Of a stretch of 38,055 bases of DNA, positions 15,616 to 33,515 are shown piece after piece; the stretch's first letter is position 1, and every line of letters starts with the position of its first letter. The notes below the pieces were generated by a model, which worked only from the letters and a program-made list of their open reading frames with translations, was not told the DNA's origin and ran no database searches. A program made the position numbers and the translations under genes. The stretch comes from a virus, in the UHGV virus genome UHGV-0022456, one strand, 5' to 3'.

Positions 15616-16266
15616 TTAATATCCAATAGCCAGAAAAAAAACATCAGAAAGATTAGAGTCATGACTTGTGCCGGATGTCAGGCACGTCACAGCGTCAAAC
15701 CCAGTATTTGTTACGCTCTCACAAGACGTAACAATCTGTGCAAATGTCAACTTAGTGGCAAATACTCCCCAAACACCAGTCGGAAATGGTGTCGGATAGG
15801 TGACAGGGATTGTTGTCGGTATGCCAATTAATGTTGAGTTAGATAGCCTACGCCGAAAGACCTGGGTAATTAAACCATTTGGAAGTTTAGCTAACAGATT
15901 GTCAGTGCCTTTCCCTGTAAGCTGGAAATAACTCATATCAGGTATTTCAAGCGATTGAGTATTACCGACATCACGGCCAGATGCTGTCCCGAGATCTCCC
16001 AAACCAAGATTCTCGAGAGCCTTAGCGATTGCTGCCGGACCATCAGCTTTAATGTCTCCGAATGGGTCTGTTCTTTGTAGCTTATTTGAATACAGCCATT
16101 GAGATTTCAGGTCTGATAAATTTTGCAGATAACTGAAGTCATTTTTAGTTGGGGGGGTTGCCCCAACAAATTCCCAACCCTTTGCATAGTTAACATCACC
16201 GATTGGCGTCAATCCACCAGTGGCGGTAGAACCGAAAATCTTGCTGAAATCTGCTGGCAGAGCCAT
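15616..16266 (-). CDS. Tail fibre protein (short)
   Basis: 216 aa; Gly/Thr/Ser-rich; position between baseplate genes and tfa. Confidence 0.5.
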   Translation of the reverse strand: MALPADFSKIFGSTATGGLTPIGDVNYAKGWEFVGATPPTKNDFSYLQNLSDLKSQWLYSNKLQRTDPFGDIKADGPAAIAKALENLGLGDLGTASGRDVGNTQSLEIPDMSYFQLTGKGTDNLLAKLPNGLITQVFRRRLSNSTLIGIPTTIPVTYPTPFPTGVWGVFATKLTFAQIVTSCESVTNTGFDAVTCLTSGTSHDSNLSDVFFLAIGY

Positions 16267-20501: not shown

Positions 20502-21190
20502 CAGTTAAGCCACCCATTAATTTTTTTGGCGCCCCACTCTCCGGATTGCAGAAGCCATGATTTCGACTTCTCTGGCGTAGCAGCGCCGACCTTCTTCCCA
20601 GCTGCGTTAATCTGGCCTGCGGTATTCGATTTCTTGCCAACATCCTTTTTCGGAGCCATTTTCTTCGACCCGCCGTTTTTGTTGTCGCTCATTGCGCTGG
20701 CAGGAACCTGCGTGGTTCGTGCTGAGATGATATTGATGCCGGTTAGCGTGGCAGTGAAGAAAAGCGCATCACTGGTCGTCAGGTCACGATTAACGGTGAT
20801 AGGCCCGTCGAAGAACATGTTTTTGTAAGTGCCGAGCGATGTCACCAGTGTAAACGGCTCGCGCATCTTGCGAATCTCATGCAGCTTGGCGAGCTTGTCT
20901 TCCCATGTGCTCATGGTGGACGGGGTAAACCCGTCATCCAGCGCTGACTGAACAAGTTCAATTCCCTTATTCAGTAGTGACTGGTCAGTGAAAATTCCCT
21001 GAATGGTCACACTGTCAGGCTCAATCAGGATATTATCTGAGATTGTCGCCCCGTCCTGCACTGGTTTACGGGTGATGGTGTGGTTAAACGTATGCGTTTC
21101 AACCTGAGTCACATCAATCGGGATGACTGAAATCTGGTTGTAGTCGCTGCCAAACAGCTTGCGCAGTACGCCTGGTTCGAAGATAAGCAT
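20501..21190 (-). CDS. Hypothetical tail protein (229 aa)
   Basis: Immediately downstream of tape measure gene; Lys/Gly-rich C-terminus. Confidence 0.35.
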   Translation of the reverse strand: MLIFEPGVLRKLFGSDYNQISVIPIDVTQVETHTFNHTITRKPVQDGATISDNILIEPDSVTIQGIFTDQSLLNKGIELVQSALDDGFTPSTMSTWEDKLAKLHEIRKMREPFTLVTSLGTYKNMFFDGPITVNRDLTTSDALFFTATLTGINIISARTTQVPASAMSDNKNGGSKKMAPKKDVGKKSNTAGQINAAGKKVGAATPEKSKSWLLQSGEWGAKKINGWLN

Positions 21191-22794
21191 CAGTATTTAA
21201 CCCCCGTATCAGTCCCCTTCGTTCTTAAGGCGTTGTCTCTTCGTAGCTCCTGCCGTATAGCCTGCGCGGTTGCCACCGGATTTTCAGCGCCATTGACAAT
21301 AATCTCGCCAACTGTAGTGTTCCCGCTGTTGGTGGTAATAACATTTCCCCGACCAGCATTAGCCTGAGCCATGCCCTGCGCCATTGTCGGAGGGGCGGTT
21401 ACGGTTATGCGTGGAGGAACAAGAACCTGCGGCGCAGTAATGCCATGACCAGGAATTTCAGGTTGCCTGTTTTCACCTTTTACTATTTCTGCGTAACCCG
21501 GGATGCGCTCATGACCTGGAATGTCATGCTGTAGATTACTTTGCGTTTTGGGATTCCTGTTTGGGTTGTACGACCCGCCAGAAGCAAACGTCATAAGTTT
21601 CTGCGCCCATTCAGGCATGGCGTTGTAAATGGCTTTGTCTATCCTTCCCAGTGCATCGATGATGTAATTTACAAGCCCGTCCCATATTCCCCTGATGCTG
21701 GTGTCCATTCCTTTAAAACTTTCAATGATGCGACCTGTAACCGAGTCGCCACCAGTGAAGTAGGTATATACATCCTGAATGGCAAGAATGAGCGCGCCAA
21801 TTGCAAGCCCTACCAGTGCAGGGCCAGCAGCCGCAGCCGCCCACGCCAGCAGAGCGCCAACCCGCATTGTGGCAAACGCTGTTGTTAGCGCATTGGTTAG
21901 CGCGATTAGTTTGGCCCATGACGCTATTGCGGCAGATCCGATCAGGTAAGGCATGGCAATAGCTGCGGCTATGCCCAGGTATTTGATGGAGGCAATGAGT
22001 CCATTAATAGCAGCGGTAAGGCCGTTAACTATCTCATCGCCGTGAAGGTCGAAAAACTCCTTCATCTGGCGAGTTATTCGCGTGAATATCGGCAGCAGGT
22101 TGGAGGCGACGATATTCCACAGGCCTTTAATGCGAGCCTGCAGGGAATCCATCTCGCGGGTATATTCCCGCGCCATGTCGAGATTCTCCTGGCTAATTAC
22201 CAGCCCGGACTCTCTCGCCTGCTTCTGAAGTTCCGCGATTTTTTCGGATGTCTGCGCGAAAAATTCACCGCCAACATCTGCAAGCCCACCGCCGAAAAGG
22301 GCATCAGCAAGGAATTGCCGTTTGCCCTGCTCTTTAACCTCGCTCAGCTTATTCCTGACAAGCCTAAAAAGCCCTTCGATATTGTTTCCGTACTGTTTAA
22401 CCTGGGCCTGCGTGATGCCGATTTCGCCAAACGCATCCGCATTAGCCTTCCCGTCCAGCGCAAACTCGCCAGCCCGCATCGACAACTCTTTCATGCCGTC
22501 TGCAAGCTGGTCTTGTTCAATACCAAATGATTTTGCGGCGAATGCCGTGGCCTGAAACGCCTCAGCATTGACGTTCAGGCGCTTGGTTAGCTGGTCAATC
22601 TCTGTTGCGGTATTGGCGAAGTCGTTAACCATCGCATAAGCCGCACCGGTGACCGCTGTAGCCGCCGATGCTGCAATGGTGATAAGGCCAGCCATGACCT
22701 TAGTAACGTCCTTAACGGACTGCTCAGCTTCGTTAAATGAGGCATCATCAACATCGAGGCCGATGTAACCCAAAAGCTCAGTAACAAATGCCAT
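21190..22794 (-). CDS. Tail tape measure protein
   Basis: 534 aa; helical N-terminal half, central hydrophobic Ala/Gly/Leu-rich segments; directly follows chaperone frameshift. Confidence 0.7.
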   Translation of the reverse strand: MAFVTELLGYIGLDVDDASFNEAEQSVKDVTKVMAGLITIAASAATAVTGAAYAMVNDFANTATEIDQLTKRLNVNAEAFQATAFAAKSFGIEQDQLADGMKELSMRAGEFALDGKANADAFGEIGITQAQVKQYGNNIEGLFRLVRNKLSEVKEQGKRQFLADALFGGGLADVGGEFFAQTSEKIAELQKQARESGLVISQENLDMAREYTREMDSLQARIKGLWNIVASNLLPIFTRITRQMKEFFDLHGDEIVNGLTAAINGLIASIKYLGIAAAIAMPYLIGSAAIASWAKLIALTNALTTAFATMRVGALLAWAAAAAGPALVGLAIGALILAIQDVYTYFTGGDSVTGRIIESFKGMDTSIRGIWDGLVNYIIDALGRIDKAIYNAMPEWAQKLMTFASGGSYNPNRNPKTQSNLQHDIPGHERIPGYAEIVKGENRQPEIPGHGITAPQVLVPPRITVTAPPTMAQGMAQANAGRGNVITTNSGNTTVGEIIVNGAENPVATAQAIRQELRRDNALRTKGTDTGVKY

Positions 22795-23060
22795 TAGTCG
22801 GCCTCATAAAGTGACTCGTTGATTCTGCGGTTAATCTCAGCCTCGACGTGAAGTGATTCACAGCAGTCCAGGAACATATGGTACGACCATTTATTCAGCA
22901 CGTCATCCGGGCTGGAGTAATATGCTTTTGCTACGCGCATCACTGCCGCCATCTCATCAGAGTATGACGGCTGGATGTCACGCGTGTAAATCAGCTTTCC
23001 GCCGACACGGAGTTCTCCGCCATCTTGCGTTGAAACATAGCGGTCGCCTTCCCCAAAAAA
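22794..23060 (-). CDS. -1 frame extension of tail assembly chaperone (G-T type fusion)
   Basis: -1 frame open for 88 codons from slippery heptamer T_TTT_TTG (plus 23054-23060) to TAA overlapping tape measure ATG (TAATG). Confidence 0.55.
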   Translation of the reverse strand, partial: FFGEGDRYVSTQDGGELRVGGKLIYTRDIQPSYSDEMAAVMRVAKAYYSSPDDVLNKWSYHMFLDCCESLHVEAEINRRINESLYEAD

Positions 23061-23335
23061 CTCGGGTACATCTCCTTAACGTAAGCAAAGAAAACGGTAT
23101 CGGCGAGGTCAATCTGGCCTTCGAAGAACTTGTCGAAATCAAGCGGCTGATTATCGACTTCCGCACCGTTCAGCATGGATTTCAGCAGGTCGTATTGCTC
23201 ATCACCTTGCAGCTTGCCCTGATAGGTCAGCGCCGCGATGTTCATGAGCTTGGCCTGGATGCGAAAGCCTTCGCGGGTGGTTGGCATGACTACGCTGAAA
23301 GTGTGTTCGCCTGCTTTGATGTCTTTGAGTTGCAT
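22991..23335 (-). CDS. Tail assembly chaperone (zero-frame product)
   Basis: 114 aa immediately upstream of tape measure; GGAG SD; contains slippery site at codons 92-94. Confidence 0.6.
   Translation of the reverse strand: MQLKDIKAGEHTFSVVMPTTREGFRIQAKLMNIAALTYQGKLQGDEQYDLLKSMLNGAEVDNQPLDFDKFFEGQIDLADTVFFAYVKEMYPSFLGKATAMFQRKMAENSVSAES
23054..23060 (-). other. Programmed -1 ribosomal frameshift slippery heptamer TTTTTTG
   Basis: X_XXY_YYZ = T_TTT_TTG in zero frame (AGT TTT TTG); downstream -1 frame open to tape measure start. Confidence 0.55.
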
Positions 23336-23362
23336 GATTGGTCTCCGTGTTTGGTTGACATA

Positions 23363-23368
23363 ATTATA
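23363..23368 (-). promoter_or_regulatory. Consensus -10 TATAAT (minus strand) upstream of chaperone gene
   Basis: Minus strand GTTATAATTATGTC, then ACGGAGA SD and ATG 23335; -35 weak (TTTTCA) and overlaps terminator T-run. Confidence 0.4.
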
Positions 23369-23387
23369 ACACGGAGGGAGTGGAATG

Positions 23388-23407
23388 AAAAAAGCCCCGT
23401 GAGGGGC
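23388..23407 (-). terminator. Rho-independent terminator closing the moron cassette
   Basis: Minus strand GCCCC-TCAC-GGGGC followed by TTTTTT immediately after DUF551-like stop. Confidence 0.65.
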
Positions 23408-23608
23408 CTATTCTGTTGGTGGTGCTGGCGTATCAAACCACATTGCAACTTCACCTACATACTGATGCTTTGTTTGATGGTAACTAGCCAGTAACCACGA
23501 GCCTTGGTGGTTTAATCTACCAATCCACTGCCTACCATCAGAAAGAAGAACGGGTACGTCTCTGTATTTTTCCGGCAACCGATCACTGCATTTAATCCAT
23601 TCGCTCAT
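23408..23608 (-). CDS. DUF551-like small phage protein
   Basis: Track ORF 23408-23611; MSEWIKCSDRLPE...VPVLL...WIGR N-terminus characteristic of DUF551. Confidence 0.5.
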   Translation of the reverse strand: MSEWIKCSDRLPEKYRDVPVLLSDGRQWIGRLNHQGSWLLASYHQTKHQYVGEVAMWFDTPAPPTE

Positions 23609-23611
23609 CAC

Positions 23612-23740
23612 TCAATCCTCATCTTCATAATCAGAAAAACACTTAGCAGAAAGGTTATCCCCATCGCAAAGCGTTGCTTTTCCGTACATCTCAAATATCC
23701 ATTTTGCAAAATCCAGCGTAACTTTGTCATATGCTGTCAT
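23612..23740 (-). CDS. Small acidic ORF (42 aa), not in ORF track
   Basis: ATG overlaps stop of upstream TM2-like gene (ATGA); MTAYDKVTLDFAKWIFEMYGKATLCDGDNLSAKCFSDYEDED. Confidence 0.3.
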   Translation of the reverse strand: MTAYDKVTLDFAKWIFEMYGKATLCDGDNLSAKCFSDYEDED

Positions 23741-24036
23741 TTCTTCACCCCATATTTCCGGTTGATTTCCTGCTCACTGGTACATAGCAGGATAATGAAC
23801 TCGATAAACGCCACGAAAAAGTTAATACCAGTCCAGCAGAACAGAATGTACATTACGCCTGAAAACGGGCGCCCCAAGTAGAAGCGGTGGATGCCAATGA
23901 ATCCGAAGAAGAAGCACAGCAGCACGGCGGTAACTTTGCTCTTTGTGTAAACCTGTTGCTTAGAGCCACAGTTAGGGCAGCTGGTGGCTGATTCGTGGAT
24001 TTGCGCTCCGCAGGCGCGGCAGTAGATGTTGCTCAT
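23737..24036 (-). CDS. Zinc-ribbon / TM2-domain-like membrane protein
   Basis: Track ORF 23737-24060 trimmed to ATG 24036 with AAGGAGAG SD; CRACG...CPNCG zinc ribbon then two hydrophobic helices with GIHRFYLGRP. Confidence 0.55.
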   Translation of the reverse strand: MSNIYCRACGAQIHESATSCPNCGSKQQVYTKSKVTAVLLCFFFGFIGIHRFYLGRPFSGVMYILFCWTGINFFVAFIEFIILLCTSEQEINRKYGVKK

Positions 24037-24046
24037 TTCTCTCTCC

Positions 24047-24214
24047 TTATCGCGCAGCAATCATTGCTTGCCAGATGAACACGACGGCATCCTGCAATTG
24101 CTCGTCATCTAATCCATCCTCCAATCCCGGAACGTCCTCCAGTAACTGCTTAATGCCAGCTTGAATTTGTTCATCTGTTGGCTGGAGTGCCACTTCAAAT
24201 TTAGGTAATGACAT
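24047..24214 (-). CDS. Small acidic protein (55 aa), not in ORF track
   Basis: ATG at 24214 with GAGAGGAAA SD; MSLPKFEVALQPTDEQIQAGIKQLLEDVPGLEDGLDDEQLQDAVVFIWQAMIAAR. Confidence 0.4.
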   Translation of the reverse strand: MSLPKFEVALQPTDEQIQAGIKQLLEDVPGLEDGLDDEQLQDAVVFIWQAMIAAR

Positions 24215-24407
24215 TTCAATTTCCTCTCTGTGGTGTTATTGGTGGGGTGGCGTGCTTCGTCGGTAGCCTCGGTTCAGTAACCGCACTAGCGTTCTCCGTT
24301 TCCGGTAGTGTGTGCGTTCTGGCCTCACGGTTGGGAATCCTGACACTACGATCAAGCCCCTGCGTTGCTCCTCTCCTGCTGCATCCTGCCGCCTCCCTAT
24401 GTGTTGA

Positions 24408-24435
24408 ACTATACACTCTATTTATATTGTGTCAA
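24408..24435 (-). promoter_or_regulatory. Strong sigma70-like promoter driving the moron cassette
   Basis: Minus strand -35 TTGACA (plus 24430-24435) inside GGTTGACAC, 16-nt spacer, -10 TATAGT (plus 24408-24413); leader of about 186 nt to ATG 24214. Confidence 0.55.
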
Positions 24436-24446
24436 CCATTAGGCGC

Positions 24447-24469
24447 GTAAAAAAGGGGCCGAAGCCCCT
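24447..24469 (-). terminator. Rho-independent terminator after tail tube gene
   Basis: Minus strand AGGGGC-TTCG-GCCCCT followed by TTTTTT. Confidence 0.65.
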
Positions 24470-24474
24470 ATTAA

Positions 24475-24888
24475 TTAATCCAGTGCTTGCCCGGTATGGA
24501 TAATGTAACCCTTAACGAACTTAAATGTGTACTGGACAATGGTCAATTCCTGGGTCTTCACTAGCGCAGGAGGTCGTGCCAGCATGGCCTCTTTCGCACC
24601 AGCAACTTCGCCTGTGCTGTTTCTGTCCAGTAAAAGCAATGGCAGCGGTTTGCCAGCCTCATACAATGCCTGCCATGCGGCTTTTGTTGGGCTTACGTCC
24701 TGCAGAGAAACGACGCACGTCCCAGATTCATCCAGCGAGCGAATGAACGCACCGCCAGACTTAATGGAAGGATAAGTATTCCAGATATCATTGTTAAATG
24801 TGAAATTGAACATTTCACCATTAGCAACTGCGCGAGCTGCAACCCCACCCCAGGAAAGGGTAACTTTATTCGGATCGTAAATTGGCAC
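24475..24888 (-). CDS. Tail tube protein (by position)
   Basis: 137 aa immediately downstream of sheath-sized gene. Confidence 0.5.
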   Translation of the reverse strand: MPIYDPNKVTLSWGGVAARAVANGEMFNFTFNNDIWNTYPSIKSGGAFIRSLDESGTCVVSLQDVSPTKAAWQALYEAGKPLPLLLLDRNSTGEVAGAKEAMLARPPALVKTQELTIVQYTFKFVKGYIIHTGQALD

Positions 24889-24890
24889 GA

Positions 24891-26363
24891 TTAGATACCC
24901 CCAATTGACCAGGTACCGCGAACAACCCAGCCATCAATGGCGGAGTTCAGCGTTGCCTGATATACGTCGTTGAATGTTGCCTGCCCGGATTTACGCACAG
25001 ATGCAGGAATGCTGTCAGGGTCTGGAAGTGACACGGTGTAATCTTCCAGGATAACCCGGCGGTCTACCGCTCGCTCCAGCCACTCACGAATCAGCGCCTC
25101 AACATCCGTGAACGTTTCCTCATCGAATGCCATCAGCGGCGTGCGGAATGCGTAATTCGCCAGGCTTGCTTGCAGATTGTTATCCACCCAGTCTGCACCC
25201 CACTGAATACGGATTTCACGGTCGGTACAGGTGCGACCCTTATACAGGTGCGTAAACGTTGTGTTCGTGAATGTTTCCACGAAGTTGTAACCCTTAGCAC
25301 GAAGGTTATTCTGCTCTGTTGGGCTTAAGCCTGAGTCGCTGGCAGTGGTCAGGGTTTTATAATCCCACTGCTGCGCGCCCGGGTCAGTCCAGAGCATTCG
25401 CCCAAGAATTGCAGCATCAGGACGCTGACCTGTCATGTCTACACCATTAACCACACCGGTAGGATGATAGATAGCTGACGACCGCTCCATGCTGGTATTG
25501 CGCAACTGATAGCCGATGTCACTCGTTGCAGTATTAAGGACAGCATTCGGGTCGGTAGTCATGAACATGGCCTGAGCCTTGTTCTCCGCGCTCGACTGAA
25601 CCCATTCCGCGATTGTTTTCTGGTCCGCAATAGCACCAGCATTTACGCCAGCGTAGGCATAGAAATAAGCGTTGCCGCCTCGAGCGTAGAAATCATTCAT
25701 TACATCAGGGAATGACTCGCCAATGGTTTGAGCGGTTCCGGCAGTTGACGCCGAGCCAGCAGATGTCGCCAGTTTCATCGCCTGTGACAGATCGGTATCA
25801 CCGCCAGTGATGATGACGCTTGATGTGCTGCCAGTTGTCGCTGAGGTTACGATAAACTGCGCTGTTCCTGCCGCCCATGCAACGGTGGCCACAGGCGTGG
25901 TCTTGTTGTTCAGTTCGGTGGCAACATCATCCATAGAAGCGACACTGGAAAGGTCAACTCCAGTAATGGCCTTTGGCGTGCCGTCGATGGTCAGGCTCAT
26001 AGCGCCATCACTAATGCCGGTGAACTTTGCCAGCTCCTGCTCTTCAGAAGAAAGCACGCCGCCGGTGAGTTTGCCAGCAGTGGCCGGAGTATTGACGGCA
26101 GTCTTGTTCCAGTAAATCACTGCAACGTCAGCAGGTGCGCCACCTTCCTGCGAGAAGTGGGTCTGCAGCCACTTGAACTCAACAGGATGCGACACCGCAT
26201 CAACCTCGTCAGCATAGGAATCAGGAGTGAGGATGCGATAACGCTCACCGCTGAATAAGTCATTGGTTGTGATAAAGCCTGCGCGGTTCAGCACATCGAC
26301 AGTGGCTACTTTATCGTTCAGCAGCGTATCGACCGCGAAACGGCGGCGAATCGGAGTAGGCAT
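24891..26363 (-). CDS. Tail sheath protein (by size and position)
   Basis: 490 aa, Thr/Ala/Gly-rich; sheath-tube-chaperone-tape measure order. Confidence 0.5.
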   Translation of the reverse strand: MPTPIRRRFAVDTLLNDKVATVDVLNRAGFITTNDLFSGERYRILTPDSYADEVDAVSHPVEFKWLQTHFSQEGGAPADVAVIYWNKTAVNTPATAGKLTGGVLSSEEQELAKFTGISDGAMSLTIDGTPKAITGVDLSSVASMDDVATELNNKTTPVATVAWAAGTAQFIVTSATTGSTSSVIITGGDTDLSQAMKLATSAGSASTAGTAQTIGESFPDVMNDFYARGGNAYFYAYAGVNAGAIADQKTIAEWVQSSAENKAQAMFMTTDPNAVLNTATSDIGYQLRNTSMERSSAIYHPTGVVNGVDMTGQRPDAAILGRMLWTDPGAQQWDYKTLTTASDSGLSPTEQNNLRAKGYNFVETFTNTTFTHLYKGRTCTDREIRIQWGADWVDNNLQASLANYAFRTPLMAFDEETFTDVEALIREWLERAVDRRVILEDYTVSLPDPDSIPASVRKSGQATFNDVYQATLNSAIDGWVVRGTWSIGGI

Positions 26364-33440: not shown

Positions 33441-33515
33441 TGGCGGGAAGGCATGGACTCGAACCATGATAAAAGAGTTAACAGCTCTCCGTAATAACCT
33501 TTATACGACCTACCC
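33441..33515 (-). tRNA. tRNA-Asn (anticodon GTT) candidate, phage-encoded
   Basis: Hand-folded cloverleaf: acceptor GGGTAGG/CCTTCCC (one U-U mismatch), D-loop with GG, anticodon stem GAGAG/CTCTT, loop CTGTTAA, T-arm CATGG-TTCGAGT-CCATG, discriminator G, encoded CCA. Confidence 0.55.

Follow-up and report, generated by a model that had tools for sequence, protein, structure and literature searches.

What does the stretch immediately upstream of the tape measure gene encode in the phage genome UHGV-0022456? A short open reading frame (ORF) there, placed by the gene order of the virion module in a position typical of tail assembly chaperones, is overlapped in the -1 frame by a second open frame, and the two could be separate genes or one gene with two products. 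Chaperones of the G/GT type, with a programmed -1 frameshift, were reportedly described by Xu, Hendrix and Duda in 2004. We analysed the whole 38,055-nucleotide (nt) stretch, hereafter the window; coordinates of the chaperone, its extension and the tape measure gene refer to the minus strand and are numbered on the whole window. What is observed at this locus is a sequence layout, its conservation, and coding selection on the -1 extension in a part where it has no start codon of its own. We conclude that a programmed -1 frameshift of the G/GT type, resembling that of E/E+E' in phage P2, very probably makes a chaperone fusion in this contractile-tailed phage.

Layout of the locus

The zero-frame ORF starts at ATG 23335, 7 nt downstream of a GGAG (23346..23343), and reaches TGA 22993..22991 after 114 codons, confirming the 114-amino-acid (aa) chaperone proposed in a first-pass annotation of the window. 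The same annotation had placed a T_TTT_TTG heptamer at codons 92-94, and both its position and its register hold: TTTTTTG at 23060..23054 lies in the X_XXY_YYZ register that a tandem -1 slip requires. Right after it comes GGGG, which creates a second in-register heptamer, T_TTG_GGG, not mentioned before. The -1 frame opens at 23075, 15 nt before the first heptamer and directly behind a TAA (23078..23076), overlaps the zero frame by 82 nt, and closes at TAA 22796..22794, the final A of which also begins the tape-measure ATG (22794; TAATG), again as first described. That the -1 frame stays open from the slip, and that the zero frame stops shortly after it, also stood up to inspection, although both lengths had to be corrected: the former runs for 86 sense codons rather than 88, and the latter for 20 sense codons after codon 94, rather than 22, before its stop. 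The predicted fusion has 94 + 86 = 180 aa, in line with the earlier estimate of about 180 aa, and a mass of 20.6 kDa compared with 12.9 kDa for the short product. Between 23075 and 22953 the -1 frame contains no ATG, GTG or TTG, and its first start codon is ATG 22952. Diagnostic peptides are predicted to be EMYPSFLGK for the short form and, for the fusion, the tryptic peptide EMYPSFLGEGDR, which spans the -1 junction. The tape measure gene that follows matches phrog_8125 and other families named 'tail length tape measure protein' (E 7.5e-31) and, under the cut-off, Pfam PhageMin_Tail (E 4e-5). Coordinates of this and neighbouring features are collected in Table 1.

The heptamer by itself is not rare, as the window holds 10 copies of TTTTTTG against 10.4 expected. 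A -1 frame open for 86 codons arose in 235 of 20,000 shuffles. Scanning the 78 ORFs of at least 90 aa in the window returned 42 in-register heptamers, and only the chaperone site and one other have a -1 frame that continues for at least 30 codons beyond the zero-frame stop.

Table 1. Features of the tail region of the window, in order along the minus strand
Feature	Position	Strand	Basis or remark
Sheath gene	26363..24891	-	Pfam DUF3383 (E 1e-37), phrog_205 'tail sheath'
Putative tail tube gene	24475..24888	-	137 aa, directly after sheath; phrog_280 'virion structural protein' (E 6e-16) and position
Small-gene cassette	23392..24469	-	between tube and chaperone genes
Terminator-like	24469..24454	-	start of cassette
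Promoter-like, TTGACA-16-TATAGT, strong	24435..24408	-	in cassette
Zinc-ribbon/TM2 membrane protein	24060..23737	-	small ORF in cassette
DUF551 protein	23611..23408	-	small ORF in cassette
Terminator-like hairpin	23409..23392	-	precedes promoter-like site of chaperone gene
Promoter-like, TTTTCA-17-TATAAT with TG	23363..23391	-	directly 5' of chaperone gene; consensus scan only
Zero-frame tail assembly chaperone gene (G-like)	22991..23335	-	114 aa, 12.9 kDa; ORF and translation
Shine-Dalgarno-like AAGGAG	23072..23077	-	11 nt 5' of heptamer; not in first-pass annotation
Slippery heptamer T_TTT_TTG	23054..23060	-	in register, codons 92-94 AGT TTT TTG
Overlapping alternative heptamer T_TTG_GGG	23051..23057	-	slip there gives same protein (...SFLG|EGD...)
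-1 frame extension (T-like)	22794..23054	-	86 sense codons and TAA; base 23054 re-read
Weak predicted hairpin	23017..23043	-	starts 10 nt after heptamer; only recurrent prediction
Tape measure protein gene	21190..22794	-	534 aa; ATG overlaps extension stop (TAATG)

Conservation and coding selection in close relatives

The close set consisted of nine sequences: the window, Escherichia phage BUCT618 (90% identity across 89% of a 4-kb query), three assembled contigs and four IMG/VR contigs. With chaperones 76-99% identical to that of the window, all eight relatives keep AGT TTT TTG GG, a zero frame of 114 codons and a -1 frame ending on the tape-measure ATG. A word-indexed protein search returned only four close chaperone clusters, and BUCT618 received no mention in the literature searched. 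T_TTG_GGG is present in eight of the nine sequences and is lost in one relative, L003, which reads TTG GGA AAG. At positions 2767..2785 of L003, TTT TTG GGA AAG combines the P2-type T_TTT_TTG with an overlapping, in-register G_GGA_AAG of the lambda type.

Across the nine sequences the register of variable sites switches at the slip. Upstream of it, 25/20/71 variable sites fall at zero-frame codon positions 1/2/3, and after the zero-frame stop 11/1/47 fall at -1-frame positions 1/2/3. Pairwise codon differences in the latter region are overwhelmingly synonymous in the -1 frame (580 synonymous/144 non-synonymous) and not in the zero (53/685) or +1 (23/730) frames. The same holds in the 51 nt that separate the first -1 ATG (22952) from the zero-frame stop, with 13 of 14 variable sites at -1-frame position 3 and 147 synonymous vs 8 non-synonymous codon differences in that frame. 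This stretch evolves as -1 coding sequence and no start codon exists from 23075 to 22953; it is therefore translated, and cannot be reached by ordinary initiation. As the sequence reads, the full extension of 86 codons from 23054 would be translated only after a slip.

Two further candidate explanations of the locus were rejected. A plus-strand ORF at 22853..23494 (213 aa, GTG start), which the first-pass annotation had called spurious, does exist, but the homologous frame is broken by stops in five of eight relatives. A sequencing error or pseudogene was dismissed since both frames are kept in 13 independent sequences.

Distant relatives share the extension and differ in the heptamer

Using the predicted fusion as a tblastn query against 50,697 phage records, we found the extension in 16 PY100-like Yersinia phages (residues 89-178, 45% identity, E 2e-14), where it forms one reading frame across two annotated hypothetical ORFs, as well as in Vibrio phages 13VT501A and 1.123.O. 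A HMMER scan of 1.8 billion representative proteins gave nine clusters, each chaperone-only or extension-only, the kind of separation that gene callers yield at a frameshift; one of these clusters led to IMG/VR contig L012, with 36% chaperone identity. Searches of GTDB genome contigs with the chaperone alignment, of metagenome contigs with query P0009, and of viral contigs with queries P0009 and P0011 gave no match. A further match among the representative proteins, of fusion residues 89-118 (MYPSFLGEGDRYVSTQDGGELRVGGKLIYT) to nine repeated stretches in P0012, a protein of 1702 aa that is unrelated (E 1.3e-4), is probably a low-complexity or repeat artefact.

A homologous -1 extension is thus kept in the eight close relatives and in four distant lineages (L012, PY100/X1, 13VT501A and 1.123.O; X1 is essentially identical to PY100) with chaperone identities of 16-36%, so that its conservation among related phages, on which the first-pass annotation had made its reading depend, is borne out. 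In every lineage the -1 frame extends 42-65 codons beyond the chaperone stop, and two of them, L012 and PY100, repeat the TAATG overlap with the tape measure gene. Modelled fusions of the family measure 174-187 aa, with P-S-Y, V-A, P, W, D, E, V and E invariant in the extension; all candidate start codons in the window, and the annotated one in PY100, come only after the P-S-Y.

An alignment of the chaperones shows a conserved (F/Y)P(D/S/K)(F/L/V) motif, and this is where in-register heptamers are found: T_TTT_TTG in the window clade, T_TTT_TTC in L012, T_TTT_TTT in 1.123.O and, one codon earlier, C_CCA_AAG in 13VT501A. PY100/X1 have GAT TTT CGG at the motif. Differing heptamers at one fixed site in proteins that are 16-36% identical would be expected under selection for a frameshift, and chance does not predict such a pattern.

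Signals around the slip site

The first-pass annotation had suggested a search for a pseudoknot or hairpin in the RNA, 5-9 nt downstream of the heptamer. Folding against shuffled sequences and consensus folding produced no convincing hairpin there, pseudoknots not having been searched. The one prediction that recurred (23043..23017) has nine pairs in the consensus fold, all invariant and with no covariation; covariation is uninformative here because this dual-coding stretch hardly varies. A role of this hairpin as 3' stimulator is not supported. The result agrees with P2, in which no hairpin follows TTTTTTG (PMC3091744). An Rfam search of 22700..24900 returned only sub-threshold noise.

Upstream of the heptamer lies an AAGGAG that could be a 5' frameshift stimulator, and that we regard as a lead rather than a finding. 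Shine-Dalgarno-like stimulators of -1 shifts act at a spacing of 9-14 nt (PMC5009743), a range that includes the 11 nt found here. AAGGAG is invariant in all nine close sequences, though it stands in a part of the gene where most third codon positions (71 of 93) are variable. The motif occurs 21 times per 76 kb counting both strands, which by a post hoc estimate gives a chance of about 0.2% for its presence in a 6-position window. Distant relatives lack it; in L012 the same Lys-Glu is specified by AAA GAA.

Predicted structures were noted after the slip site in two of these distant phages. In PY100 (L009; 3513..3574) an 8-bp G+C-rich stem, CUCGUCGC/GCGGCGAG, starts 6 nt after TTT (z -2.1), and in 13VT501A (L010; 3468..3530) a hairpin follows C_CCA_AAG (z -3.2). 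Dependence on 3' structure may be a feature of relatives and not of the Escherichia clade.

Identity and predicted structure of the products

The window chaperone matched phrog_1613 'tail assembly chaperone' (E 2.7e-4) and Pfam PF21822 Phage_TAC_15 (E 0.0086; residues 41-101 to profile positions 62-126 of 127). In an alignment of ten family members, seven match PF21822, with a best E of 7.5e-8, and do so in the same region of the profile as the window chaperone.

AlphaFold models had a mean pLDDT of 84 for the short form and 77 for the fusion, the latter built on a patchy alignment of half-length homologues (A6) in which C-terminal tails of short proteins were misaligned to the extension. In the short form, residues 1-94 were modelled confidently and the remaining tail poorly. 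The fusion model has a disordered linker (96-126) followed by a confident helical domain (127-180). The boundary of the confident domain, residue 94, coincides with the slip site. Compared with predicted viral structures, the fusion model was closest to a 'Tape measure chaperone' of Citrobacter phage Moogle (E 1.1e-4), followed by a 'Tail assembly chaperone' of Arthrobacter phage Kitkat (E 2.3e-4). The matches have low TM-scores (0.35-0.44), which a loose linker between two domains would lead one to expect. Among solved structures the model matched uncharacterised proteins only, and the family profile, searched against PDB sequences, had no meaningful match.

Alternative explanations

Public records present the locus as two independent genes, i.e., the 114-aa chaperone and a separately initiated small protein of 52 aa (ATG 22952) or 48 aa (ATG 22940). 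All 17 related GenBank phage records, BUCT618 and PY100 among them, list two hypothetical proteins here, gene callers (including metagenome gene calls) give ORFs of 47-71 aa at the extension, and ATG codons are indeed available at both positions. Independent initiation nevertheless leaves unexplained the strong -1-frame purifying selection on the 51 nt before the first ATG, as well as the invariant P-S-Y upstream of both ATG 22952 and the annotated PY100 start. Further to that, no good Shine-Dalgarno motif was seen before either ATG, and diverged lineages again have slippery heptamers at the matching position. We consider two separate genes very improbable. Even less credit is given to transcriptional slippage, in which RNA polymerase would add one U on the T6 run (23060..23055; T7 in 1.123.O) and the edited mRNA would give the long product. 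Six T residues are short compared with the ~9 A or T described for efficient bacterial cases (PMC5009743), 13VT501A has C_CCA_AAG and no homopolymer run at the same position, and the identical site of P2 is annotated and described as a translational frameshift (PMC3091744).

A different kind of alternative keeps both mechanism and product and moves the slip one codon downstream, to T_TTG_GGG. There the A-site tRNA-Gly re-pairs perfectly (GGG to GGG), and the heptamer is in register in most of the close set. The protein product being identical, the two sites are indistinguishable to selection. However, L003 loses T_TTG_GGG and keeps T_TTT_TTG, the distant L012 and 1.123.O keep the T run and not the G run, and P2 uses T_TTT_TTG followed by TCG. 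We consider slippage at the later site unlikely, though not negligibly so.

We favour a programmed -1 frameshift at T_TTT_TTG. The G/GT-type arrangement claimed in the first-pass annotation is supported by gene order, the -1 overlap, the in-register heptamer, conservation and coding selection on the extension, the gene pair lying between a putative tube gene and the tape measure gene as that type asks, with a 1.1-kb set of small genes intervening. Several points weigh against this reading. The 1.1-kb insert, which has its own terminator-like and promoter-like sites, splits the tube gene from the chaperone, and the textbook layout is contiguous. Folds of the 50-94 nt after the heptamer are no stabler than shuffles (z -0.2 to -1.35; pseudoknots were not searched), and re-pairing of tRNA-Leu on U_UUU_UUG requires a wobble mismatch. 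At the corresponding place PY100/X1 read GAT TTT CGG, which contains no canonical heptamer. The window chaperone scores 17 bits against PF21822, for which the curated Pfam cut-off is 22 bits. The 1.8 billion representative proteins contain no fused ORF of the family, so no natural in-frame fusion confirms joint function, and the 180-aa product is a predicted one.

Proposed mechanism and comparison with known systems

We infer the slip itself, its rate and the binding partners as follows. Most ribosomes would read 23335..22991 and release the 114-aa chaperone, and a minority would slip one base back on U_UUU_UUG, with tRNA-Phe on UUU and tRNA-Leu on UUG. The slipped ribosomes would then read the -1 frame for 86 codons and stop at the TAA overlapping the tape-measure start, giving a 180-aa fusion composed of the chaperone core (1-94), a flexible linker and a small helical C-terminal domain. 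The rate of slipping would set the ratio of short to long product, and pairing of the upstream AAGGAG with 16S rRNA would possibly boost it. On the model of lambda and P2, the N-terminal part common to both products would coat the tape measure protein, and the rare C-terminal domain would recruit the tube protein.

In P2, E and E+E' arise by a -1 shift at TTTTTTG without a downstream hairpin (PMC3091744, citing Christie et al. 2002, Xu et al. 2004). The P2 record annotates the shift at GGT TTT TTG in the same register, in a gene pair flanked by FII (tube) and T (tape measure). The two phages share a contractile tail, a pair immediately 5' of the tape measure gene, the identical T_TTT_TTG heptamer and its register, the lack of a 3' hairpin, and an extension that ends overlapping the tape-measure start. 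They differ in that a profile comparison detects no relationship between their proteins (0.2% probability), the slip occurs 7 codons before the E stop in P2 and 20 codons before the stop in the window, the products measure 91/142 aa as opposed to 114/180 aa, and E directly follows FII, whereas a 1.1-kb cassette intervenes in the window.

Lambda makes a short chaperone, G, and a rare -1 fusion, GT, in a fixed ratio, and neither is found in virions (PMC5009743, summarising Levin et al. 1993, Xu et al. 2004, 2013, 2014). The slip rate is given as about 3.5% in lambda and as 2-3 times that in P2 (PMC5009743). Many short copies and few fusions assemble on the tape measure protein; the shared part binds the latter, and the extension binds or recruits tube subunits (PMC5009743). 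The two-product logic is the same in the window, and the relative L003 carries lambda's G_GGA_AAG in register beside its T run. The lambda tail, in contrast, is non-contractile, and its heptamer is G_GGA_AAG. No similarity in sequence to lambda G was seen, no search aimed at it having been made. The tape-measure and tube binding roles suggested for the window products are carried over from lambda by analogy only. A third point of comparison is E. coli dnaX, beside which the window may be set for its Shine-Dalgarno-like sequence, a candidate stimulator, 11 nt upstream of the heptamer. At the dnaX site, A_AAA_AAG and a strong 3' stem-loop together send about 50% of ribosomes into the -1 frame, and the product is truncated. 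Unlike dnaX, the window has no convincing 3' structure, and its candidate 5' element is absent in distant relatives.

Genomic context of the tail module

The virion module on the minus strand starts with the portal, a Mu-F-like protein, a DUF2213 protein, a cement protein, the major capsid protein and the neck terminator, and continues with the DUF3383 sheath, the 137-aa protein in the tube position, the small-gene insert, the chaperone and the 534-aa tape measure. After the tape measure follow a Dit-like protein, a Pam3-gp18-like plug, an E217-gp41-like hub, the spike, baseplate J, the tail fibre and a fibre assembly protein. The 137-aa protein is a putative tube protein, as its phrog_280 match and gene position suggest. 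Searched against complete E. coli genomes, the 751-bp region gave no hit. A tRNA-Asn (GTT) gene (33441..33515, minus strand) immediately precedes the portal gene.

The small-gene cassette between tube and chaperone has the look of an exchangeable slot for accessory genes within the tail operon. Its content varies among relatives, with an HNH endonuclease at that place in L002 and L003. Within it, a stretch of ~185 nt (24231..24416, minus strand) recurs at 84-97% identity, mostly in unannotated sequence, in many phages with no other relationship, including Alux-21, HeidiAbel_Bas97, Salmonella PT1, Enterobacter Arya, Klebsiella IME279 and the swan01/JK16 group. It sits just downstream of the strong promoter-like site in the cassette, the sole ORF covering it is an Arg-rich 66-aa ORF with a GTG start, and it gave no Rfam match and no folding signal (z +0.29).

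Elsewhere in the module, the tail-fibre ORF (16266..15616, minus strand) carries an in-register T_TTT_TTT at 15634..15640, the other of the two sites singled out by the heptamer scan. Its TAA follows 7 codons later, and the -1 frame continues from the heptamer directly into the tail-fibre-assembly gene (Caudo_TAP, ATG 15613), so that a slip would fuse the fibre to its own chaperone. This arrangement is probably due to chance. The tail-fibre region is not common to the window and BUCT618.

Implications for annotation and for the phage family

The result is an annotation gain and not new biology, because the 17 related GenBank records list two separate hypothetical proteins at this place. The device is ordinary and well known in phages, simply unannotated in the public records of this group, and the finding leaves the understanding of frameshifting and of tail assembly unchanged. 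The correct annotation of the region is a 114-aa chaperone together with a joined 180-aa frameshift product, and the same correction is due in BUCT618, PY100, X1, the vB_YenM phages and the two Vibrio phages. Correct annotation concerns this phage and about 20 related records. An otherwise orphan small ORF is thereby assigned a role. One more lineage, with an E217/Pam3-like tail module, is added to the many tailed phages that set their chaperone ratio by a -1 slip, and a second, unrelated protein family is seen to use the TTTTTTG of P2.

A wider reading, which we offer tentatively and consider rather doubtful, is that the recoding signal has turned over within this small family of phages, always at one and the same place in the protein. 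Under such turnover, the Escherichia clade might combine the U_UUU_UUG of P2 with a dnaX-like upstream AAGGAG and no 3' structure, and relatives might use U_UUU_UUC, U_UUU_UUU or C_CCA_AAG, the last with its 3' hairpin (z -3.2). For the PY100-like phages, U_UUU followed by CGG, together with the 8-bp stem 6 nt downstream (z -2.1), suggests structure-aided single-tRNA slippage. If signal turnover is true, the family would provide a compact natural series on how slip site, 5' stimulators and 3' stimulators trade off to hold one ratio.

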